Of a DNA stretch of 39,704 nucleotides, positions 22,854-37,806 are shown piece after piece. Origin of the DNA: Shigella phage ESh12; the sequence record ON528724; one strand, given 5' to 3'. Under the pieces are notes generated by a model, which did no database searches, was not told where the DNA came from, and worked only from the letters and a program-made list of their open reading frames with translations. How positions within the stretch are numbered: position 1 is the stretch's first letter; every line of letters starts with the position of its first letter. Both the position numbers and the translations under genes were made by a program.

Positions 22854-23306
22854 ATGCTAAAACTTTTACGCAGCGCACTCCCTTGGGTACTCGCCGGGAC
22901 ACTCTTTATGGGTGGCTGGCACTTAGGGTCAACCCATGAGAGAGCAAACTGGAAGGAGGTAATCCAAAATGAATACATTGCGAAAACAAAAGCAACCGCA
23001 GCAACTCAGGCAGAGGTCAGTCGGGTATCCCGTGAGTACCAAGAAGAGGTTGCAGCCATTGAGGGCAGCACTGATAGGATGCTTAATGACCTGCGTAGTA
23101 ATAATAAGCGGCTGTCAGTCCGCATCAAAACCCTTACCGGACTACCAGAAGATAACGGTAGATGCGAGTTTAATGGTCGAGCCGAACTACACGAGTCAGA
23201 TGCTAAGCGTATTATCGGAATAACCCAAGCTGCTGATGCTCACGTAAGAGCGCTCCAGCGTACTATTAAGGAGATGCAGAATGAGCGACACCCAAGCAAA
23301 CCGTAA
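22854..23306 (+). CDS. 18.5: i-spanin (Rz-like) gp18.5
   Basis: ATG at 22854 after GGGAGG; N-terminal TM segment [17 protein letters not shown], coiled-coil periplasmic domain; similar to T7 gp18.5. Confidence 0.8.
22969..23223 (+). CDS. 18.7: o-spanin (Rz1-like lipoprotein) gp18.7, nested in 18.5 in +1 frame
   Basis: RBS GGAAGGAGG; lipobox-like signal [15 protein letters not shown]; Pro-rich mature part. Confidence 0.75.
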   Translation: MNTLRKQKQPQQLRQRSVGYPVSTKKRLQPLRAALIGCLMTCVVIISGCQSASKPLPDYQKITVDASLMVEPNYTSQMLSVLSE

Positions 23307-25044
23307 TGCGCTAATCATCGCGCAGCTTAAGGGTGACTTCGTGGCCTTCCTGTTCGTATTGTGGAAGGCTTTGGCTCTCCCGCCGCCGACTAAGTGTCAG
23401 ATTGATATGGCCCGGTGTCTGGCTAACGGAGACAACAAGAAGTTTATCCTACAGGCTTTCCGTGGTATCGGTAAGTCATTCATCACCTGTGCGTTCGTTG
23501 TGTGGACGTTATGGCGTGACCCTCAGTTGAAGATACTAATTGTCTCTGCATCCAAAGAACGTGCGGACGCTAACTCCATCTTCATCAAGAACATCATTGA
23601 CCTGCTGCCCTTCTTGGCTGAGTTAAAGCCTCGCCCCGGTCAGCGTGACTCTGTGATTAGTTTCGATGTTGGCCCTGCCAAGCCTGACCACTCTCCGTCT
23701 GTGAAGTCGGTGGGTATCACTGGTCAGTTGACTGGTAGCCGTGCTGATATCATCATAGCGGATGACGTTGAGATTCCGTCTAACTCCGCAACTCAAGGTG
23801 CCCGTGAGAAGCTGTGGACTCTGGTGCAGGAATTTGCTGCGCTTCTGAAACCACTGCCAACTTCTCGCGTTATCTACCTTGGCACGCCTCAAACCGAAAT
23901 GACCTTGTACAAGGAACTCGAAGATAACCGTGGGTACACCACAATCATCTGGCCTGCGCTCTATCCGCGTAGTCGTGAGGAAGACTTGTACTATGGCGAC
24001 CGTCTGGCCCCGATGCTCCGCGAAGAGTTCAACGATGGGTTCGAGATGCTCCAAGGTCAACCGACTGACCCCGTGCGCTTCGATATGGAAGACCTCCGGG
24101 AGCGTGAGTTGGAATACGGTAAGGCTGGCTTCACTTTGCAGTTCATGCTCAACCCGAACCTTAGTGATGCCGAGAAGTACCCCTTACGCCTCCGTGACGC
24201 TATCGTGTGCGGTCTGGACTTCGAGAAAGCCCCAATGCATTACCAGTGGCTTCCGAACCGTCAGAATCGCAATGAAGAGCTTCCTAACGTGGGACTTAAG
24301 GGTGATGATATCCATAGCTATCATTCGTGCAGCCAGAACACTGGACAGTACCAGCAACGCATCCTCGTGATTGACCCAAGTGGTCGCGGTAAGGATGAGA
24401 CAGGTTACGCAGTGTTGTTCACCCTGAATGGCTACATCTATCTGATGGAAGCTGGCGGGTTCCGCGATGGTTACTCCGACAAGACCCTTGAGTCCCTCGC
24501 TAAGAAAGCGAAGCAGTGGAAGGTTCAGACAGTGGTCTTCGAGAGTAACTTCGGGGATGGTATGTTTGGTAAGGTATTCAGCCCGGTTCTCCTGAAACAC
24601 CATGCAGCGCAGCTTGAAGAGATTCGTGCTCGTGGTATGAAGGAACTACGCATTTGTGATACGCTGGAACCTGTACTCTCTACGCACCGCCTTGTGATTC
24701 GTGACGAGGTGATTCGTGAGGACTACCAGACTGCCCGTGACGCTGATGGCAAGCACGACGTTCGCTATTCGCTGTTCTACCAGTTGACCCGTATGGCTCG
24801 TGAGAAGGGCGCTGTGGCCCACGATGACCGACTTGATGCATTAGCATTGGGTGTGGAGTTCTTACGCTCTACGATGGAACTGGACGCCGTGAAGGTGGAG
24901 GCTGAGGTGCTTGAGGCGTTCTTAGAGGAACACATGGAGCACCCAATCCATTCGGCTGGTCATGTAGTTACCTCTGTGGTTGACGGTATGGAACTCTATT
25001 GGGAGGATGACGATGTGAATAGCAACAGGTTCATTGACTGGTAG
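23281..25044 (+). CDS. 19: Terminase large subunit gp19
   Basis: 587 aa; ATPase motifs ([16 protein letters not shown]) and nuclease domain; similar to T7 gp19. Confidence 0.95.
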
Positions 25045-28800: not shown

Positions 28801-29910
28801 ATGACTTTCACCGAAGCACAAGCCGCACTCGAAGCTATCCGCAACCTACCGATTGAGCGCATGAACGAGCGCCAGCCAATGCTGGTGGCTCTTGTGGCTG
28901 CTATCGTGAACTCTGAGACTCAGGAGGGGCAACTGACAGCGGCTAAAGGAAACCGGAGTCTTGAGGACATGGACTACTGGCAGACGCTGGCAGAGCGCAT
29001 GAGGGATGTTGGTTTCATTAAGTTAGGAAATGGTCACTTTAGCGCAGCATATGAGCACGCGTTGTTACCGGGCAAGGTCATCAAGGTAGGCTTTAAGAAA
29101 GAGGACTCAGGCGCAGCCTATGCAGCCTTCTGCCGTATGAACCAAGGCCGGGAAGGTATCCCTACGGTGTACGACATTCAGCGCCACGCTGGTTGTTACA
29201 CGGTGGTTCTTGACTATCTGAACCCGCTTAACGACTGGTGCTACGGTGAGAGTGACAAGGTGCGTCACCACTTCAAAGCCGCACGGGAAATCATTGAGGA
29301 GGATTGCTTCGATACCGCCGAAGAGTACCCAATAAGTGACGGGTTCATTGAGACCTGCAAGGATATCCGCAAGTTCTTCTTAGGCATCGCATCGTTCGAT
29401 TGTCACAGCGGTAACATGATGAAAGACCAGATGGGACGCCTGATTATCACAGACCCGGTATCATTCAGCGCAGACGACAAGTTAAAGCCGGGTGAGTTCC
29501 ACTGTGACCCGGATGAACTCATCGCTGAGATTGAGGCGCTGAGAGCGCAGGAAGCGATTGACCGCTGTAAGGCACGCAAGGCACGCCGTGACCCTAAAGG
29601 AGACTTTCAGGTAGCACGAAAGGCCCGTGCCAAATGGCGCAGAAAGGCCTCTAAGCGTGCTAAACGTGACGCTAAGGTACTCGCTAAGATGCGCATGGAT
29701 GCCAACGAGCAACGCAGGGCCGAGCCTAGGGCACGTATGTTGTGGGGCGATAAGCACTGGCGCAACGCTTGGGTGCAGCACATGAATGTTGACTTCGCAC
29801 GGCTCGAACTGTTAGCAGCCGCACAGATGGCACAGATAGACCACAAGGCTATCGTATGGGGCAAGCCGTTACACATAGACGCATACCTTGACAAGAGACT
29901 GCAAGGCTGA
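28801..29910 (+). CDS. 0.7: gp0.7 serine/threonine protein kinase (host shut-off)
   Basis: 369 aa; GNGHFSAAYEH, VIKVGFKKEDSGAAY, HSGNMM, ITDPVSFS and basic C-terminal domain match T7 gp0.7. Confidence 0.9.
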   Translation: MTFTEAQAALEAIRNLPIERMNERQPMLVALVAAIVNSETQEGQLTAAKGNRSLEDMDYWQTLAERMRDVGFIKLGNGHFSAAYEHALLPGKVIKVGFKKEDSGAAYAAFCRMNQGREGIPTVYDIQRHAGCYTVVLDYLNPLNDWCYGESDKVRHHFKAAREIIEEDCFDTAEEYPISDGFIETCKDIRKFFLGIASFDCHSGNMMKDQMGRLIITDPVSFSADDKLKPGEFHCDPDELIAEIEALRAQEAIDRCKARKARRDPKGDFQVARKARAKWRRKASKRAKRDAKVLAKMRMDANEQRRAEPRARMLWGDKHWRNAWVQHMNVDFARLELLAAAQMAQIDHKAIVWGKPLHIDAYLDKRLQG

Positions 29911-29911
29911 T

Positions 29912-29965
29912 AGAGTCTTTTCTTACAGGTCATCACTAGGTGGCCTGAATAGGAACGATTTATTC
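29912..29965 (+). promoter_or_regulatory. RNase III-type hairpin (R1 position)
   Basis: CTTACAGGTCATCACTAGGTGGCCTGAATAGG upstream of gene 1. Confidence 0.45.
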
Positions 29966-29980
29966 ACAATGAGGCAAACA

Positions 29981-32635
29981 ATGAACATCATCGAAAACAT
30001 CGAAAAGAATGACTTCTCCGAAATCGAACTGGCTGCTATCCCGTTCAACACACTGGCAGACCACTACGGTAGCGCATTGGCTCGTGAACAACTGGCTTTA
30101 GAACATGAGTCTTATGAGCTAGGCGAGCGCCGCTTCCTCAAGATGCTTGAGCGTCAAGCGAAAGCTGGTGAGATTGCAGACAACGCAGCCGCTAAGCCAT
30201 TACTCGCTACGCTTCTCCCTAAGTTAACCGCACGCATCGTTGAGTGGCTCGAAGAGTACGCATCGAAGAAAGGCCGCAAGCCTAGCGCATACGCACCGCT
30301 CCAGTTACTCAAGCCGGAGGCCTCCGCGTTTATCACCCTGAAAGTTATCCTTGCATCACTGACCAGCACGAACATGACAACCATTCAGGCCGCTGCTGGT
30401 ATGCTGGGGAAGGCCATTGAGGATGAGGCACGTTTCGGGCGTATCCGTGACCTCGAAGCGAAGCACTTCAAGAAGCACGTTGAGGAACAGCTCAACAAGC
30501 GCCACGGGCAAGTCTACAAGAAGGCCTTTATGCAGGTGGTCGAGGCCGATATGATTGGTCGAGGCCTGCTTGGTGGCGAGGCGTGGTCTAGCTGGGATAA
30601 AGAAACCACGATGCACGTAGGGATTCGCCTGATTGAAATGCTGATTGAATCCACGGGTCTGGTGGAATTACAGCGACACAACGCAGGTAACGCAGGCTCT
30701 GACCATGAGGCACTGCAACTGGCCCAAGAGTACGTCGATGTGTTAGCGAAGCGTGCAGGCGCTCTGGCGGGCATCTCTCCGATGTTCCAGCCGTGTGTCG
30801 TACCGCCTAAACCTTGGGTAGCAATCACCGGAGGCGGCTATTGGGCTAACGGTCGCAGACCTTTGGCACTCGTTCGCACTCACTCTAAGAAGGGACTGAT
30901 GCGCTATGAGGATGTTTACATGCCAGAAGTTTACAAGGCGGTCAACATCGCACAGAACACCGCATGGAAAATCAACAAGAAAGTTCTTGCGGTTGTCAAT
31001 GAAATTGTTAACTGGAAGAATTGCCCGGTAGCAGACATTCCATCACTGGAGCGCCAAGAGTTACCGCCTAAGCCGGACGACATTGACACCAACGAGGCAG
31101 CACTCAAGGAGTGGAAGAAAGCCGCCGCTGGTATCTATCGCTTGGACAAGGCACGAGTGTCTCGCCGTATCAGCTTAGAGTTCATGCTGGAGCAGGCCAA
31201 CAAGTTTGCAAACAAGAAAGCAATCTGGTTCCCTTACAACATGGACTGGCGCGGTCGTGTGTACGCTGTGCCGATGTTCAACCCGCAAGGCAACGACATG
31301 ACGAAAGGTCTGCTGACCCTCGCTAAAGGCAAGCCAATCGGTGAGGAAGGGTTCTACTGGCTGAAAATCCACGGTGCGAACTGTGCGGGTGTCGATAAGG
31401 TGCCTTTCCCTGAGCGCATCGCGTTCATTGAGAAGCACGTAGACGACATTCTGGCTTGCGCCAAAGACCCAATCAATAACACTTGGTGGGCTGAGCAGGA
31501 CTCACCGTTCTGTTTCCTCGCGTTTTGCTTCGAGTATGCAGGCGTTGCGCACCACGGTCTGAGCTACAATTGCTCTCTGCCGCTGGCGTTCGATGGGTCT
31601 TGCTCCGGTATCCAGCACTTCTCCGCGATGCTCCGCGATGAGGTAGGCGGTCGCGCGGTTAACCTACTGCCAAGCGAAACCGTGCAGGACATTTACGGCA
31701 TCGTTGCACAGAAAGTAAACGAGATTCTCAAACAGGATGCAATCAACGGCACACCTAACGAGATGATTACCGTGACCGATAAGGACACCGGGGAAATCTC
31801 TGAGAAGCTCAAGCTGGGAACCTCAACGCTGGCGCAACAGTGGCTGGCGTATGGTGTAACCCGTAGCGTAACTAAACGTTCGGTCATGACGCTGGCTTAC
31901 GGTTCCAAGGAGTTCGGCTTTCGTCAACAGGTACTGGACGACACCATTCAGCCTGCGATCGACAGCGGTAAGGGCTTGATGTTCACCCAACCTAACCAAG
32001 CGGCTGGCTATATGGCTAAGCTGATTTGGGACGCGGTGAGCGTGACCGTAGTCGCAGCGGTTGAGGCGATGAACTGGCTCAAGTCTGCCGCTAAGCTGCT
32101 GGCTGCTGAGGTCAAGGACAAGAAGACCAAGGAGATTCTGCGCCACCGTTGCGCGGTTCACTGGACTACGCCGGACGGCTTCCCGGTCTGGCAGGAATAC
32201 CGCAAGCCACTCCAGAAGCGTCTCGATATGATTTTCTTAGGGCAATTCCGTCTGCAACCGACGATTAATACCCTCAAGGATTCAGGCATTGACGCACACA
32301 AGCAGGAATCTGGCATCGCTCCTAACTTTGTTCACTCACAGGATGGTAGCCACCTGCGCATGACAGTCGTTTATGCTCACGAGAAGTATGGTATTGAGTC
32401 CTTTGCGCTCATCCATGACAGCTTTGGGACTATTCCGGCAGACGCTGGTAAGCTCTTTAAGGCTGTGCGTGAAACGATGGTTCTCACCTACGAGAACAAC
32501 GATGTGCTGGCAGACTTCTATGACCAGTTTGCAGACCAGCTACACGAGACCCAACTTGACAAGATGCCTCCTCTTCCGAAGAAAGGGAACCTGAACCTGC
32601 AAGACATTCTCAAGTCTGACTTTGCCTTTGCATAA
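29981..32635 (+). CDS. 1: Single-subunit DNA-dependent RNA polymerase gp1, T3 specificity
   Basis: 884 aa from MNIIENIEKNDFSEIELAAIPF; near-identical to T3 RNAP from memory; consistent with T3-type promoters throughout. Confidence 0.97.
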   Translation: MNIIENIEKNDFSEIELAAIPFNTLADHYGSALAREQLALEHESYELGERRFLKMLERQAKAGEIADNAAAKPLLATLLPKLTARIVEWLEEYASKKGRKPSAYAPLQLLKPEASAFITLKVILASLTSTNMTTIQAAAGMLGKAIEDEARFGRIRDLEAKHFKKHVEEQLNKRHGQVYKKAFMQVVEADMIGRGLLGGEAWSSWDKETTMHVGIRLIEMLIESTGLVELQRHNAGNAGSDHEALQLAQEYVDVLAKRAGALAGISPMFQPCVVPPKPWVAITGGGYWANGRRPLALVRTHSKKGLMRYEDVYMPEVYKAVNIAQNTAWKINKKVLAVVNEIVNWKNCPVADIPSLERQELPPKPDDIDTNEAALKEWKKAAAGIYRLDKARVSRRISLEFMLEQANKFANKKAIWFPYNMDWRGRVYAVPMFNPQGNDMTKGLLTLAKGKPIGEEGFYWLKIHGANCAGVDKVPFPERIAFIEKHVDDILACAKDPINNTWWAEQDSPFCFLAFCFEYAGVAHHGLSYNCSLPLAFDGSCSGIQHFSAMLRDEVGGRAVNLLPSETVQDIYGIVAQKVNEILKQDAINGTPNEMITVTDKDTGEISEKLKLGTSTLAQQWLAYGVTRSVTKRSVMTLAYGSKEFGFRQQVLDDTIQPAIDSGKGLMFTQPNQAAGYMAKLIWDAVSVTVVAAVEAMNWLKSAAKLLAAEVKDKKTKEILRHRCAVHWTTPDGFPVWQEYRKPLQKRLDMIFLGQFRLQPTINTLKDSGIDAHKQESGIAPNFVHSQDGSHLRMTVVYAHEKYGIESFALIHDSFGTIPADAGKLFKAVRETMVLTYENNDVLADFYDQFADQLHETQLDKMPPLPKKGNLNLQDILKSDFAFA

Positions 32636-32646
32636 CAAGCACTTAG

Positions 32647-32669
32647 CATTAACCCTCACTAACGGGAGA
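32647..32669 (+). promoter_or_regulatory. T3-type phage RNAP promoter (phi1.05 position)
   Basis: CATTAACCCTCACTAACGGGAGA. Confidence 0.8.
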
Positions 32670-32721
32670 CTACTTAAGGTCTCCCACTTTAAGACACTTT
32701 AGGTACTAAGAGATTAAATTT

Positions 32722-32994
32722 ATGATTAACATTAAGACTTTCTTTAAGAACATCTTTAAGTTAAACCGCTTGACTTCCGTTAAGTTCTACGCTTGGATGC
32801 CAGGTAGTGATGACCTCCGCAAGACTGAATTTAAGTTAGGCTTAGGGCCGTGCGGTAAGGTGGTCACGAAGTTGGAATGTTACTCAACGGCCTCCGGGAT
32901 GGTCATCTTCCAGACCACTGAGGACAACGAAACGAAATCCTTCTACTACCCGAAAGGTTCAACGTGTGGTCGTATCGAACGGACATACAGTTAA
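32722..32994 (+). CDS. 1.05: gp1.05-like small protein
   Basis: 90-aa ORF, AT-rich, weak RBS, lies in the presumed primary origin region. Confidence 0.45.
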   Translation: MINIKTFFKNIFKLNRLTSVKFYAWMPGSDDLRKTEFKLGLGPCGKVVTKLECYSTASGMVIFQTTEDNETKSFYYPKGSTCGRIERTYS

Positions 32995-33011
32995 CCCTCA
33001 CTAACGGGAGA
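32989..33011 (+). promoter_or_regulatory. T3-type phage RNAP promoter (phi1.1 position)
   Basis: AGTTAACCCTCACTAACGGGAGA overlapping stop of 1.05. Confidence 0.8.
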
Positions 33012-33060
33012 GTTAAACTTAAGGTCATCAACAACGGTGGCCTTTGTGATTAACTTTCAA
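33012..33060 (+). promoter_or_regulatory. RNase III-type hairpin (R1.1 position)
   Basis: TAAACTTAAGGTCATCAACAACGGTGGCCTTTGTGATTAAC. Confidence 0.5.
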
Positions 33061-33086
33061 TACACATCAACATGAGGTAAGATACT

Positions 33087-33227
33087 ATGCGTACCAACTT
33101 TGAGAAATTTACCAAGCGCGATTCAGTGGTCAACGAGCATGGCGAACAGTGGCAAGAGCGCCGTGACCGCATGAAGAAACGCCACAAGCAACAGCGCGGT
33201 AACTCACAGAAACGGGAGTGGAACTAA
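33087..33227 (+). CDS. 1.1: gp1.1 small basic protein
   Basis: 46 aa MRTNFEKFTKR... resembles T7 gp1.1; below ORF-track cutoff. Confidence 0.6.
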   Translation: MRTNFEKFTKRDSVVNEHGEQWQERRDRMKKRHKQQRGNSQKREWN

Positions 33228-33232
33228 TGATG

Positions 33233-33505
33233 ATGGGACGTATCTATAGCGGCAACCTGAACGATTACAAAGATGCGGTAGCGCGTCTACAGGAAGACCA
33301 TGACGTGACCGTGAAGATGGAGTCATTCAGCTATGAAAACCCAGCGAAGATGTGCAGGTCATCAGGTGAGGTTCTCCGCGTGTTCACACGCTCAGGGCAT
33401 CCGGTGGCATCCAGAACCTTCGAGCATAGTGACAGCGATGTGCAAATCAACGCGCAGACTGCATGGCTCCGCAAGGTTCACAGCGATTTGAAACACTGGA
33501 AGTAA
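33233..33505 (+). CDS. 1.2: gp1.2 (host dGTPase inhibitor family)
   Basis: 90 aa from MGRIYSGNL, ends HWK; similar to T7 gp1.2; ATG choice among three adjacent Met is uncertain. Confidence 0.75.
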   Translation: MGRIYSGNLNDYKDAVARLQEDHDVTVKMESFSYENPAKMCRSSGEVLRVFTRSGHPVASRTFEHSDSDVQINAQTAWLRKVHSDLKHWK

Positions 33506-33525
33506 TAACCCTCACTAACAGGAGA
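33503..33525 (+). promoter_or_regulatory. T3-type phage RNAP promoter (phi1.3 position)
   Basis: TAATAACCCTCACTAACAGGAGA. Confidence 0.75.
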
Positions 33526-33531
33526 AACGAA

Positions 33532-33948
33532 ATGAGAAACATCGAACGGTTCAACGCAAAGACTGAACCTTGCGGTGACTGTCTACGTTGGACTGGTCGA
33601 ATCCAGCCTAACGGTTACGGACAGTTTCGCCTCGAAGGTAAAACACAATACGCACATCGAGCAGCTTACAAGCTGTTTATCGGTGAATTGGACAATAAAG
33701 ATACAGTCCTCCACTCGTGCGATAACAGGTGGTGTGTGAACCCTGAGCATTTGACCAAGGGAACGCAGGCCGATAACCTGAAAGACATGGCGATAAAGGG
33801 TAGGCACCACGCCATTAAGATTCCGAACGATGCCATTGAGGGCATCCGTAAAGACCCTCGCTCTGCCACTGTGATAGCGGCTGAGTGGGGCGTCCATCCA
33901 ACAACCATCCATAAGATTAAGCGAAACATCAACAGGAGATTCGTATGA
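33532..33948 (+). CDS. HNH endonuclease (free-standing, homing-endonuclease-like)
   Basis: 138 aa; HSCDNRWCVNPEHLTKGTQADN HNH core, Cys-containing N-terminal region, C-terminal helix-turn-helix-like tail; stop overlaps ligase ATG (ATGA). Confidence 0.8.
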   Translation: MRNIERFNAKTEPCGDCLRWTGRIQPNGYGQFRLEGKTQYAHRAAYKLFIGELDNKDTVLHSCDNRWCVNPEHLTKGTQADNLKDMAIKGRHHAIKIPNDAIEGIRKDPRSATVIAAEWGVHPTTIHKIKRNINRRFV

Positions 33949-34961
33949 ACATTTTCAAGACCGCGCCATATAAAGCCGTATCCTTTGTAGAGTCTGCCGT
34001 GAAGAAAGCACTTGACAATGCTGGTTATTTGATTTGCGATTGCAAATATGATGGTGTTCGTGGTAACATCGTGGTTGACAACGTGGCTGAGGCTGCATGG
34101 CTGTCCCGTGTAGGTAAGCTGATTCCGGCGCTGGAGCACCTGAACGGCTTCGATAAGCGCTGGCAGCAACTACTGAACGATGACCGCTGCATCTTCCCGG
34201 ACGGCTTCATGCTGGATGGTGAACTGATGGTCAAAGGCGTAGACTTCAACACAGGGTCTGGCCTGCTGCGTACCAAGTGGCTCAAGAAGAACAACTTCAT
34301 GTTTGACCGTGGTGGTGTTGAGCCGCTGAAAGGTTCCAAAGTAGCCTTTGAGTTAGACCCCAAGCTACTCAGCGTGCGCCTGTATGCTGTCATGCCGATT
34401 CACATTGCGGAGTCTGGCGAGGACTACGATGTACAGAACCTGCTGATGCCGTATCATGTGGAAGCCATGCGCTCTCTTCTGGTTGAATACTTCCCGGAAA
34501 TCGAGTGGCTTATCGCTGAGACCTACGAGGTCTACGATATGGATTCACTGACTGAACTGTACGAAGAGAAGCGTGCCGAAGGTCACGAGGGTCTCATTGT
34601 GAAAGACCCACAAGGCATCTACAAGCGAGGCAAGAAGTCTGGCTGGTGGAAGCTCAAGCCTGAGTGTGAAGCTGACGGTATCATTCAGGGTGTCAATTGG
34701 GGAACCGAAGGGTTAGCCAACGAGGGTAAAGTGATAGGCTTTAGTGTGCTTCTTGAGACTGGTCGTTTAGTAGACGCCAACAACATCTCTCGCGCACTGA
34801 TGGACGAGTTCACAGCCAACGTTAAAGCCCACGGTGAAGACTTCTACAACGGGTGGGCCTGTCAGGTCAACTATATGGAAGAGACCCCGGACGGCTCCCT
34901 GCGTCACCCTAGCTTCGAGAAGTTCCGAGGCACTGAGGACAACCCTCAAGAGAAAATGTAA
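33945..34961 (+). CDS. 1.3: ATP-dependent DNA ligase gp1.3
   Basis: 338 aa; active-site KYDGVRG, strong similarity to T7 ligase. Confidence 0.95.
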   Translation: MNIFKTAPYKAVSFVESAVKKALDNAGYLICDCKYDGVRGNIVVDNVAEAAWLSRVGKLIPALEHLNGFDKRWQQLLNDDRCIFPDGFMLDGELMVKGVDFNTGSGLLRTKWLKKNNFMFDRGGVEPLKGSKVAFELDPKLLSVRLYAVMPIHIAESGEDYDVQNLLMPYHVEAMRSLLVEYFPEIEWLIAETYEVYDMDSLTELYEEKRAEGHEGLIVKDPQGIYKRGKKSGWWKLKPECEADGIIQGVNWGTEGLANEGKVIGFSVLLETGRLVDANNISRALMDEFTANVKAHGEDFYNGWACQVNYMEETPDGSLRHPSFEKFRGTEDNPQEKM

Positions 34962-34969
34962 CCAACTCA

Positions 34970-35003
34970 CTGGCTCACCTTCACGGGTGGGCCTTTCTTC
35001 GTT
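34970..35003 (+). terminator. TE-type early (host RNAP) rho-independent terminator
   Basis: CTGGCTCACCTTCACGGGTGGGCCTTTCTTCGTT; near-identical to T7 TE from memory. Confidence 0.8.
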
Positions 35004-35008
35004 CAGCG

Positions 35009-35031
35009 GTATTAACCCTCACTAACAGGAG
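35009..35031 (+). promoter_or_regulatory. T3-type phage RNAP promoter (phi1.5 position)
   Basis: GTATTAACCCTCACTAACAGGAGA. Confidence 0.75.
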
Positions 35032-35040
35032 ACACACACC

Positions 35041-35118
35041 ATGTGGCTTATCCTATTCGCTATCGTCGCAACGCTGGGATTAATGGCTGCCGACGACAAC
35101 ATTTGGCCTGATTGTTAA
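35041..35118 (+). CDS. Tiny hydrophobic ORF (25 aa) downstream of phi1.5
   Basis: MWLILFAIVATLGLMAADDNIWPDC; ATG after AGGAGA; coding status unproven. Confidence 0.25.
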   Translation: MWLILFAIVATLGLMAADDNIWPDC

Positions 35119-35130
35119 GGAGACAACATC

Positions 35131-35388
35131 ATGCGTTTACACTTCAACACATCAAACGGTATCTTTTCGGTTCGCCGTGAAGACCGCTCTACAGCAGTGG
35201 CCTCTGAGCGCAACGCCAAGCTGCCGCTGATTGGTTCGGTCGTCCCATTATCGCCGCGTGTTCACCTACTGATCACTCGTGGAGAGTTCATTAAGGCGAT
35301 GAACAAAGAGCGCCCGCATCTGGAAGCCGTGGTCACTTACTGGCCTCGCATCCGTCTGTTCGTTAAGTGGATTAAGGAGGTGCTGTAA
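35131..35388 (+). CDS. 1.6: gp1.6-like protein
   Basis: 85 aa, RBS TAAGGAGA, syntenic. Confidence 0.6.
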   Translation: MRLHFNTSNGIFSVRREDRSTAVASERNAKLPLIGSVVPLSPRVHLLITRGEFIKAMNKERPHLEAVVTYWPRIRLFVKWIKEVL

Positions 35389-35879
35389 TGTTACAACATC
35401 ATTGGAACAAACCAGACTTAGAGGCCCGCTTCCCGGTTAACTCTGTTGTGCGATACTCCGGCGGTGGCCTCAAGCGCATCTTAGGGATGAGCGGAGTGGT
35501 CACTGGTCACTCGCACACAGGTCGCGTTAAGGTTCGCTTCGGTACTCAGCACGCTGAGGTTCTTCCTGACAACCTGATTCCGCTGCCTAAAGCTGACGTT
35601 AAGACTCCGAACGTGGAAGCACCGAAGACAGAAGTCAAGTCTGACGTGACCCATCCGAACCACTATATGCTGTTCGACAACGTGGAAGCCATTGAGGTTA
35701 TCGCCCGGTCAATGACCGTCGAGCAATTCAAAGGCTACGTGCTTGGGAACATCCTGAAATACCGTCTGCGTGCTGGTAAGAAATCCGAACTGGCAACGAT
35801 GGAGAAAGACCTTAAGAAAGCGGCTTTCTATCAGGAACTGTTTGACAAACATAAGGGGCTGTGTTATGACGCTTCGTGA
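35388..35879 (+). CDS. 1.7: gp1.7 nucleotide kinase-like protein
   Basis: 163 aa; C-terminal [29 protein letters not shown]...[10 protein letters not shown] matches T7 gp1.7. Confidence 0.8.
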
Positions 35880-36214: not shown

Positions 36215-36913
36215 ATGGCTGGTTTCAAGAAGAAAATTTACACCTCTGGTCTTGGCACTGCTGAGCCTTATGCTTATCTGAGTAAGCCGGATTATGGCAA
36301 CGAAGAGCGTGGCTTCGGCAACCCTCGTGGTGTCTATAAGGTAGACCTGACTCTTTCCAATAAAGACCCGCGCTGTCAGGCAATGGTCGATGAAATCGTG
36401 AAGTGTCACGAAGAGGCTTATGCTGCTGCCGTGGAAGAGTTCGAAGCTAACCCGCCGCAGGTACAGCGTGGTAAGAAACCACTGAAACCTTACGAGGGCG
36501 ACATGCCGTTCTTCGATAATGGTGACGGTACGACTACCTTCAAGTTCAAATGCTATGCGTCTTTCCAAGATAAGAAGACCAAAGAGACCAAGCACATCAA
36601 TCTGGTCGTGGTCGATAGCAAGGGTAAGAAGATTCAGGAAGTGCCGATTATCGGTGGCGGCTCCAAGCTGAAAGTGAAATACTCTCTGGTGCCTTACAAG
36701 TGGAACACCGCTGTGGGCGCAAGCGTCAAGCTGCAACTGGAGTCCGTGATGTTGGTCGAACTGGCTACCTTCGGTGGTGGCGGTGAAGATGAGTGGGCCG
36801 ATGAAGTCGAAGATGGTGGTTACACTGCGAGTGAATCCCGTCAGTCCCGCGATGAGCAGGAGTGGCAGGAAGACGAGCACGAAGAAACCCCGGATGAGGA
36901 CGAGGATTTTTAA
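36215..36913 (+). CDS. 2.5: Single-stranded DNA-binding protein gp2.5
   Basis: 232 aa, same length as T7 gp2.5 (from memory); acidic C-terminal tail ...DEDEDF. Confidence 0.95.
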   Translation: MAGFKKKIYTSGLGTAEPYAYLSKPDYGNEERGFGNPRGVYKVDLTLSNKDPRCQAMVDEIVKCHEEAYAAAVEEFEANPPQVQRGKKPLKPYEGDMPFFDNGDGTTTFKFKCYASFQDKKTKETKHINLVVVDSKGKKIQEVPIIGGGSKLKVKYSLVPYKWNTAVGASVKLQLESVMLVELATFGGGGEDEWADEVEDGGYTASESRQSRDEQEWQEDEHEETPDEDEDF

Positions 36914-37390
36914 ATGGAACTTAGAGAGAAACTAAAGGCTTACAGCGAAGTTTCTCATAACGGGTGCTGGGAGTGGCAACGCTACCGGATGCCCTGTGGT
37001 TACGGTAGGATTAGACACGGAGGCCGAATGGAACTAACGCATCGTCTATCCTACCTAGCATTCAACGGGGATATACCTGATGGTCTTGTTGTTCGACATA
37101 AGTGTGACAACAAATGCTGCGTTAACCCTGAGCACCTTACGCTGGGTACTCAAAAGGACAACGTTAAGGATGCAATAGACCGTGGTCAATTCGTCTACAG
37201 GGAGAACCCGAAAGGTGCAAAGCACCACATGGCTAAACTTAATGAGAAACAGGTTATGGAGGTTTACAACTCGACACAGACCCAAAGCAGCCTAGCAGAG
37301 ACCTATGGTGTATCTCGACAATTAATCAGCGCGATTAAGAGAGGTAAACTATGGCAGCACGTTACGCAGCACGCGGAGTTAAACGAGTAG
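36914..37390 (+). CDS. HNH endonuclease (paralog of 33532..33948)
   Basis: 158 aa; HKCDNKCCVNPEHLTLGTQKDN HNH core; ATG immediately after gp2.5 stop; 3 prime end overlaps gene 3 by 40 nt. Confidence 0.8.
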   Translation: MELREKLKAYSEVSHNGCWEWQRYRMPCGYGRIRHGGRMELTHRLSYLAFNGDIPDGLVVRHKCDNKCCVNPEHLTLGTQKDNVKDAIDRGQFVYRENPKGAKHHMAKLNEKQVMEVYNSTQTQSSLAETYGVSRQLISAIKRGKLWQHVTQHAELNE

Positions 37391-37806
37391 GATCATATAG
37401 AAGCGGCTTAGAGCAGAAGAACATGGAGATGCTGGAACGCAAGGGAATCAAGGGACAGTATGAAATGTGGTCTATTCCATATGTTATCCCTGCATCGACC
37501 CACAAGTACACACCAGACATAATCCTACCCAATGGAATCATTATTGAGACCAAGGGTCTATGGGATAGTGAAGACCGTAAGAAACACTTACTGATTCGTG
37601 AGCAGATGCCTGAGTTGGATATTCGTTTGGTATTCTCTTCGAGCCGCTCTAAGTTATACAAAGGGTCTCCAACCAGTTACGGTGAGTGGGCCGAAAAGCA
37701 TGGTATTCTATTTGCTGACAAGCTGATTCCTGTGGAGTGGCTTAAAGAACCTAAGAAGGAGATACCGTGGGATAAACTAATTGCAAAGAAAGGAGTTAAG
37801 AAATAA
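37351..37806 (+). CDS. 3: Endonuclease I gp3 (Holliday-junction resolvase)
   Basis: 151 aa; PYVIPAS, YTPDIILPNGIIIETKGLW, KKHLLIREQ, VFSSSRSKLYKGSPTSYGEW match T7 gp3. Confidence 0.92.
   Translation: MAARYAARGVKRVGSYRSGLEQKNMEMLERKGIKGQYEMWSIPYVIPASTHKYTPDIILPNGIIIETKGLWDSEDRKKHLLIREQMPELDIRLVFSSSRSKLYKGSPTSYGEWAEKHGILFADKLIPVEWLKEPKKEIPWDKLIAKKGVKK

Follow-up and report, generated by a model that had tools for sequence, protein, structure and literature searches.

Shigella phage ESh12 (sequence record ON528724) is a T3-like podovirus of the genus Teetrevirus, and its circularly permuted genome, the stretch of 39,704 nucleotides analysed here, is called the window throughout. Between the class II promoter phi1.3 and gene 1.3, which encodes the ATP-dependent DNA ligase, it carries a gene for an HNH endonuclease of 138 amino acids. 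We consider it likely that this is a free-standing HNH homing endonuclease gene which occupies the slot between phi1.3 and the ligase gene, and which is spreading or has spread by intronless homing. The features on which this reading is built, all on the + strand, are the following, each with its evidence in brackets.

33503-33525, +: T3-type class II promoter phi1.3, positions -17 to +6, the 23-mer TAATAACCCTCACTAACAGGAGA (promoter matches, alignment)
33520-33525, +: AGGAGA, promoter positions +1 to +6, putative Shine-Dalgarno sequence of the HNH gene (read from the sequence)
33527-33944, +: segment specific to HNH alleles, ~415-418 bp (alignment with T3, phiYeO3-12, phiYe-F10, KLB4 and others)
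33532-33948, +: open reading frame (ORF) of the HNH (His-Me finger) endonuclease, 138 amino acids plus stop (own ATG and stop, between genes 1.2 and 1.3)
33934-33939, +: AGGAGA, Shine-Dalgarno sequence of the ligase gene within the last HNH codons (sequence)
33945-33948, +: ATGA overlap, with the ligase ATG at 33945-33947 and the HNH TGA at 33946-33948 (sequence, ORF list)
33945-34961, +: gene 1.3, ATP-dependent DNA ligase, 338 amino acids (Pfam DNA_ligase_A_M and DNA_ligase_C, annotations of relatives)
33953-34064, +: HNH-linked tract at the 5' end of the ligase gene, its core at 33953-33986 with codon 7 changed from Asn to Ala and codon 9 from Phe to Tyr (alignment, linkage)

Occupied and empty slots among T3-like relatives

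How is the gene distributed among related phages? A megablast search with positions 32600-35000 returned 273 phage records. Twelve of these, from ten distinct phages, cover 98-100% of the query, and many others align with 80-83% of it in two or three segments, the gap being the HNH ORF. In mtp1 and mtp14 the gene is present and part of the left flank is absent from the records. With the HNH protein as query, tblastn found 14 records of at least 95.7% amino-acid identity, all at the position between phi1.3 and the ligase gene; the GenBank records of homologues label the product 'HNH endonuclease', 'endonuclease' or 'hypothetical protein'. A probe for the empty junction, taken from phiYe-F10, matches many T7-like records at ~70% identity, and the empty junction is contiguous in roughly 75-85 T3-like records, T3 and phiYeO3-12 among them. 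Alignment with T3 and T3-like genomes, which a first-pass annotation of the same sequence had proposed as a check, reveals presence and absence with precise boundaries as well as an abundance of empty-site alleles, and even the nearest relative, Serratia phage 2050H2, is empty. Single isolation campaigns have yielded both carriers and HNH-less phages (mtp1/14/15 versus mtp8, and 6998/69101 versus 6996).

The boundaries of the slot are sharp, lying directly after the promoter on the left and at the ligase ATG on the right; in the alignment, the two alleles agree as far as ...AGGAGAA (33526), and their identity resumes at the ligase start. Sporadic presence and absence, precise boundaries and intact empty sites, which are among the features by which free-standing homing endonuclease genes are recognized, are all found here. 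The empty alleles hold ~70-73 bp between phi1.3 and the ligase gene, comprising R1.3, an RNase III site, and the ligase gene's own ribosome-binding site (RBS; TGAGGAACAACCGTATG). R1.3 is annotated in T3 and phiYeO3-12, and its hairpin, which forms when empty alleles are folded, is missing from ESh12. Since the empty alleles hold the R1.3 spacer in this very slot, the HNH gene has taken its place and did not fill a bare gap. Of the first-pass picture of a free-standing endonuclease inserted into an intergenic gap, only the first half is retained, as ~415-418 bp replace ~70-73 bp. Nor does phi1.3 normally drive gene 1.3 directly, as had been supposed: ~73 nt with R1.3 and a separate ligase RBS intervene in HNH-less relatives, and the promoter leader credited with the RBS serves no ligase in empty alleles, being the putative Shine-Dalgarno sequence of the HNH gene in the HNH allele. 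An identity of ~50% between the empty-allele spacer and the HNH start in a MAFFT alignment was dismissed as gap-optimised noise with no homology behind it.

Within the 5' coding region of the HNH gene, an RNA hairpin is predicted at 33542-33600 (+ strand; -25.1 kcal/mol, z -2.7). It was rejected as a substitute for R1.3, as an alignment of six homologues gave no covariation support (term +0.33; 2 of 17 pairs compensatory), and is probably incidental.

A free-standing gene with a putative borrowed start signal and a donated one

T3-type promoters match the window 12 times, exactly or nearly, against 0.01 matches expected by chance. The 23-mer at 33503-33525 overlaps the stop of gene 1.2, lies at the position annotated as phi1.3 in T3 and phiYeO3-12, and is identical between HNH-carrying and empty alleles; transcription is predicted to start at 33520 or an adjacent position. 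In carriers, AGGAGA at promoter positions +1 to +6 is the sole Shine-Dalgarno-like element before the HNH ATG at 33532, from which the promoter 23-mer is separated by the 6-nt spacer AACGAA (the first-pass annotation had counted 7 nt). T7-like HNH alleles display the equivalent layout GGGAGA-ACCA-ATG. At the other end of the gene, AGG AGA at 33934-33939 encodes, in frame, the Arg-Arg of the conserved C-terminal NRRFV tail of the HNH protein, and homologues keep both the RR(F/Y)(V/I)-stop tail and the AGGAGAT..ATGA junction. In these respects the earlier proposal, that the gene uses the resident promoter and recreates coupling to its downstream neighbour, is well founded: it stands directly behind phi1.3, its 3' end contains the ligase RBS, and its stop overlaps the ligase start in the ATGA at 33945-33948.

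The ligase ORF is uninterrupted, and an Rfam search of 32600-35200, group I and II introns included, found no family at E-values up to 1, so that an intron or other RNA family surrounding the gene was rejected. The HNH gene is a free-standing ORF, outside any intron or intein.

The embedded ligase RBS (33934-33944, AACAGGAGATTCGTATG) is closer to the T7-type AATAGGAGATAAACATTATG than to the T3-type AATGAGGAACAACCGTATG, which hints that the right end of the cassette was shaped in a T7-like context.

The HNH protein is intact and conserved

The 138-residue ORF is intact and contains the motif HSCDNRWCVNPEHLTKGTQADN quoted in the first-pass annotation. Its product matches the Pfam family HNH_3 (PF13392) with 36.2 bits against a cut-off of 24.8 (E-value 4.5e-9) and PHROG 59, 'HNH endonuclease' (E-value 1.2e-31); the Pfam match to 'zinc-binding loop of homing endonuclease' is barely at threshold. 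In an alignment of 37 homologues, C17, G28-Y29-G30, H42, H61, C63, C68, H73, G77, N82, D85 and R91 are invariant and N70 is nearly so, and the conserved positions include the catalytic His and the metal-binding Asn/His of the beta-beta-alpha-metal motif (H61, H73, N82, D85). The AlphaFold2 model is confident, with a mean pLDDT (the predicted local distance difference test score) of 88.5, and consists of an N-terminal beta-sheet, a beta-beta-alpha-metal unit and three C-terminal helices. Residues ~1-90 make up the sheet and the HNH core with its zinc-binding loop, and residues ~99-130 a predicted C-terminal three-helix helix-turn-helix (HTH) domain; H61, N70, H73, N82 and D85 fall in the unit formed by strand 58-61, strand 74-77 and helix 79-88. 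The fold of the model matches those of I-HmuI and I-PpoI, and the architecture is shared with I-HmuI, the intron-encoded HNH homing endonuclease of Bacillus phage SPO1 (PDB 1u3e).

Every copy examined is full length, with no decayed copies, and the ratio of non-synonymous to synonymous substitution rates (dN/dS) lies at 0.03-0.14 for most pairs, for near-identical copies and 72-73%-identical homologues alike; the exception, a pair with the metagenomic locus L027 at 0.46, is based on just eight differences. With full-length copies and low dN/dS, the protein is maintained by selection, and the nuclease is probably active.

A metagenomic protein, P0013, has a divergent N-terminal nuclease half and a C-terminal segment of 44 residues identical to the ESh12 protein; it looks like a recombinant of two HNH lineages within the gene.

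Ligase variants linked to the HNH gene

Ten carriers were compared with ten T3-like empty alleles in a 5.4-kb alignment, a site being counted as linked where the allele frequencies of the two groups differ by 0.6 or more. The linked sites cluster in 33527-34064, that is, in the insert and ~120 nt at the start of the ligase gene; the ~1.2 kb upstream of the slot contain 0, and the rest of the alignment three isolated ones. Over ligase nucleotides 1-45, all ten carriers read ATT..GCG CCA TAT..GTA TCC TTT (Ala7, Tyr9), save that Poynor has GTT ACC in place of GTA TCC, and nine of the ten empty alleles read ATC..AAC CCA TTC..GTG TCA TTC (Asn7, Phe9). Two metagenomic carriers, L027 and L028, combine the same HNH gene (98% nucleotide identity) with a third ligase variant, AAT CCG TTT AAG GCA GTA GCA, and the canonical empty-type 5' sequence occurs in none of the carriers compared. 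This pattern fits a role of 33953-34064 as a candidate target-site immunity or co-conversion tract, with the cleavage site within the 5' end of the ligase gene.

A related picture emerges from 2050H2, the closest record overall, which is 97.8% identical over 25 kb of the remaining genome and whose slot is empty, with R1.3. As far as 33472, ESh12 differs from it by 1-4 mismatches per 100 nt; a divergent patch with 9-30 mismatches per 100 nt then spans 33527-~34385, comprising the HNH gene and ~440 nt of the ligase gene, and beyond ~34385 the rate returns to ~1 per 100 nt. A one-sided patch that begins exactly at the slot resembles a co-conversion tract and is the sole indirect pointer to biased inheritance in mixed infection, but the resemblance is suggestive only, because the region is generally mosaic. 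Hypervariable haplotype blocks lie at 33990-34104 and 34280-34385 in the ligase gene and at 35400-35600 in the gene 1.7 region. Relatives split into discrete classes over 34250-34400 (72-79% versus 93-98% identity) and over 35450-35600 (62-66% versus 94-99%), and such short blocks indicate frequent mosaic recombination in the class II region. The segment 33990-34104 is matched at 97-100% only by mtp14/mtp15 and three metagenomic contigs, at 90% by KLB4 and at ~72-83% by other loci. A T7-like HNH donor for it was rejected, its nucleotide identity to T7-like loci being merely 72-81%; it is one of at least three T3-like haplotypes.

The ligase start of 2050H2 (2503-2547 of its locus) is itself carrier-like, reading ACA GAG CCA TAT AAA GCA GTA TCG (Glu7/Tyr9). 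This phage could represent a naturally resistant empty site or the footprint of a past loss of the HNH gene.

Homologues in other genera and an unrelated HNH gene in the slot

Teseptimavirus (64795_ec1, Yanou) and Minipunavirus (phiA020) contain homologues of 57-80% identity, as do phages with no genus in the record (PDP351P2, named as a Teseptimavirus, Bas104, vB_YenP_WW2 and ESh1/ESh3) and metagenomic contigs. The ligase gene directly follows each of the homologues examined at 57% identity or more, and all of these homologues share the ATGA overlap except that of phiA020, whose HNH stop abuts the ligase ATG (TAATG). The junction motif reads AGGAGAT..TATGA, or GAGGAAAT..TATGA in Bas104 and WW2. 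Most homologues are preceded by the promoter type of their own genus, such as TAATACGACTCAGTATAGGGAGA-ACCA-ATG in T7-like phages; a genus-type promoter is not evident immediately upstream of the HNH gene in phiA020 and in locus L055. T7-like empty alleles likewise hold phi1.3, R1.3 and an RBS in the slot, R1.3 being homologous between T3-like and T7-like phages, and both the R1.3 state and the HNH state occur in either group. A 49%-identical homologue, P0019, is not adjacent to a ligase gene.

In the same genomes, the identities of HNH protein and ligase to those of the window are 98/97, 96/95, 73/79, 72/78, 71/75, 67/77, 65/71, 64/57 and 57/57%. As HNH identity tracks ligase identity across genera, the association of the two genes is old and co-inherited, rather than the outcome of a recent jump into ESh12.

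The ESh12 lineage, here type A, is not the only one to be found in this position. An unrelated HNH_3 gene of 151 amino acids, here type B, occupies the same slot in Klebsiella phage ChM-G5, Sekstaphage-1 (Escherichia), VSG32 and vB_Yep_9 (78% identity), in 3-4 records altogether; in ChM-G5 it lies as follows.

1235-1690 of the ChM-G5 locus (L003): HNH type B

Like the ESh12 gene, type B lies between phi1.3 and the ligase ATG and has displaced R1.3, and the ligases of its phages are also altered at codons 7 and 9 (Val7/Tyr9). The two proteins are nevertheless unrelated beyond the HNH core, which is 29% identical over 73 residues: type B has a weak AP2-like C-terminus where the ESh12 protein has a predicted HTH domain, and its gene has its own AGGAGG RBS and an annotated overlap with the ligase gene of 29 nt, compared with 4 in ESh12. 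The slot has three allelic states: it may be empty, with the RNase III site in place, or hold an HNH gene of type A or of type B.

Discussion

How would such a gene propagate without harming its carrier? We propose that the HNH gene is expressed together with the class II (DNA-metabolism) genes, from phi1.3 and by read-through from upstream promoters, with the initially transcribed AGGAGA acting as its Shine-Dalgarno sequence. In a mixed infection, the enzyme would nick or cut the HNH-less allele of a co-infecting relative, most likely within the first ~40-120 nt of the ligase gene, and recombinational repair off the carrier genome would copy the HNH gene and the adjoining 5' end of the ligase gene into the recipient. 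Substitutions clustered at ligase codons 3-15 would shield the carrier genome itself, and the embedded RBS and ATGA coupling would preserve ligase expression. The processing site R1.3 would be lost in the exchange, apparently without serious cost.

Precedents for this mode of life are the free-standing homing endonucleases of T4-like phages (SegA-G, MobE, Hef/SegH), stand-alone genes between conserved genes with a sporadic distribution among relatives, whose cleavage site lies in a neighbouring conserved gene and whose flanking markers are co-converted (PMC2988022, PMC2790892). Intronless homing with co-conversion and marker exclusion has been described (PMC2988022), and works cited there document cases in T4-like phages where one endonuclease gene has taken over the site of another, as for mobE/hef and mobC/segH. 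The ESh12 gene resembles these systems in being stand-alone, wedged between conserved genes, sporadic, and located in a slot with an alternative HNH gene; a second HNH lineage in the same place is what would be expected of homing-endonuclease slots such as mobE/hef. It differs from them in that the T4-like enzymes are mostly of the GIY-YIG type (Seg) or of another HNH subgroup (Mob), belong to myoviruses, and have had their activity and marker exclusion demonstrated experimentally, whereas those of the ESh12 enzyme are predicted. Closer at hand, gp2.8 of T7 belongs to the same Pfam family (HNH_3), is of similar size and is 38% identical to the ESh12 protein, and T7 genes 2.8, 3.8, 5.3 and 7.7 and phiYeO3-12 genes 1.45 and 5.3 are all HNH_3 genes that form optional inserts between conserved class II genes. 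However, these genes represent other lineages in other slots, whereas the ESh12 lineage, at identities of at least 57%, occurs only directly upstream of the ligase gene.

Several observations weigh against homing as we propose it. For the ESh12 enzyme and its close homologues, we infer cleavage, target, immunity and preferential inheritance. The ligase variants could be hitch-hiking donor sequence instead of immunity changes. The carrier phiA020 keeps Asn7, some HNH-less phages have variant codons (Glu7/Tyr9 in 2050H2, Ser in L034 and L046), and the variant of L027 and L028 is mostly synonymous, the core AAC-CCA-TTC motif being altered synonymously only. The sequences compared are, moreover, phylogenetically non-independent, and a scan of IMG/VR with the ligase yielded 25 loci, too few for a proper association test. 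Finally, with HNH divergence tracking ligase divergence, there is no sign of recent horizontal spread between genera, and this co-divergence would also fit an old linked polymorphism reshuffled by ordinary recombination.

What else could the gene be? A domesticated accessory nuclease, beneficial to its carrier and not mobile in its own right, might break down the DNA of the host or of competitors, or serve as a nickase functionally paired with the coupled ligase, its patchiness being due to gain and loss through ordinary recombination. Such a role would account for the strong purifying selection and the want of decayed copies, for the adjacency and coupling to the ligase gene that homologues at 57% identity or more display in several genera (abutment in phiA020), and for the co-divergence of the two genes. 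Yet most close relatives do well without the gene, T3 and the near-isogenic 2050H2 included; an unrelated HNH gene can occupy the slot, which argues for the site and not for a partnership with the ligase; the architecture is shared with I-HmuI, a site-specific homing enzyme; and the HNH-linked variants are confined to the adjoining 5' end of the ligase gene. We therefore regard domestication as unlikely. Slightly harder to sustain is a passive polymorphism, in which old R1.3-spacer and HNH cassettes are swapped by ordinary homologous recombination in the flanks and the endonuclease is inactive or has another specificity. Both states are found in T3-like and T7-like genera with a homologous R1.3, HNH divergence equals ligase divergence, and the region is a general mosaic of haplotype blocks (34280-34385 and 35400-35600, for example), all of which this explanation accommodates readily. 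A dN/dS of ~0.1 and invariant catalytic residues, however, are not expected of an inactive gene, and the one-sided linkage, with 0 sites on the left side and a tract of ~120 nt on the right, is the prediction of a nearby cleavage site. We hold this explanation to be quite improbable.

T7-like phages package their DNA from concatemers with direct terminal repeats, and are not known to have an HNH packaging factor of the HK97 type. A packaging-associated nuclease working with terminase, as in HK97-like cos phages, appears highly improbable for the ESh12 gene. It would share with such enzymes the HNH motif only, and the packaging role has been discussed for other phages (PMC8861465). With gene 1.2 on one side and the ligase gene on the other, the gene belongs to the early/class II region and is far from the terminase genes, so that a terminase-associated enzyme of the HK97 gp74 kind was rejected on grounds of position, and it is dispensable in most relatives. 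The large terminase is presumably the 587-residue ORF at 23281-25044, by its size and position, ~10 kb off in the permuted record.

A bolder scenario can also be sketched, in which the phi1.3-ligase junction of T7/T3-like phages is a long-lived landing pad for which at least two unrelated HNH lineages compete. One of these may have remained welded to the ligase start codon across several genera with differing RNA-polymerase promoter specificities; it may borrow the +1 to +6 bases of each genus's promoter as its RBS and donate an RBS to the ligase gene in return; the N-terminus of the ligase (codons 7 and 9) may be caught in an arms race of cleavage and immunity; and the nuclease may be more than a passenger, giving its carrier a competitive advantage through marker exclusion or the killing of HNH-less co-infecting phages. 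Taken jointly, these propositions are speculative and rather unlikely all to hold.

In the library open to full-text search, no description of this gene or slot was found, and the gene was previously uncharacterised. It belongs to a well-known class that is commonplace in T7-like phages, and as phage HNH endonucleases of the free-standing kind are widespread and well understood, it adds nothing conceptually new. Its interest, which is modest, lies in the three-state slot, in the displacement of an RNase III site and in the use of a promoter's initially transcribed bases as a putative RBS. Beyond this, the locus provides a small natural model in which intronless homing could be studied in the T7/T3 group, where experiments are easy, with a probably active mobile nuclease beside a gene of an essential pathway, a near-isogenic pair of carrier and non-carrier (ESh12 and Serratia phage 2050H2) and a short candidate target at the 5' end of the ligase gene; the HNH replacement also removes the mRNA-processing site R1.3. 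Homing genes bias marker inheritance in mixed infections, which is relevant to phage cocktails and to engineering on T3/T7 scaffolds.

Neighbouring genes and further HNH genes

Upstream of the slot, the window holds the following genes, each with a match to the expected Pfam family.

29888-32635: RNA polymerase gene
32722-32994: gene 1.05
33087-33227: gene 1.1
end at 33505: gene 1.2

The window contains a second HNH_3 ORF at 36914-37390 (+ strand), which encodes 158 amino acids (HNH_3 E-value 4.7e-15) and is 34% identical to the first. It starts right after the stop of gene 2.5 (single-stranded DNA-binding protein, 36215-36913) and overlaps gene 3 (endonuclease I, 37351-37806) by 40 nt. Genes 2.5 and 3 abut in T3, and the position of the ORF matches that of T7 gene 2.8; it is likely another optional homing endonuclease gene. 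A further HNH gene, 1.45, lies immediately downstream of the ligase gene in Klebsiella phage Patroon (3963-4262 of locus L011) and in phiYeO3-12 (from 2272 of locus L004), with none at that place in the window. With gene 1.45 downstream and the slot gene upstream, optional HNH genes can thus flank the ligase gene on both sides.

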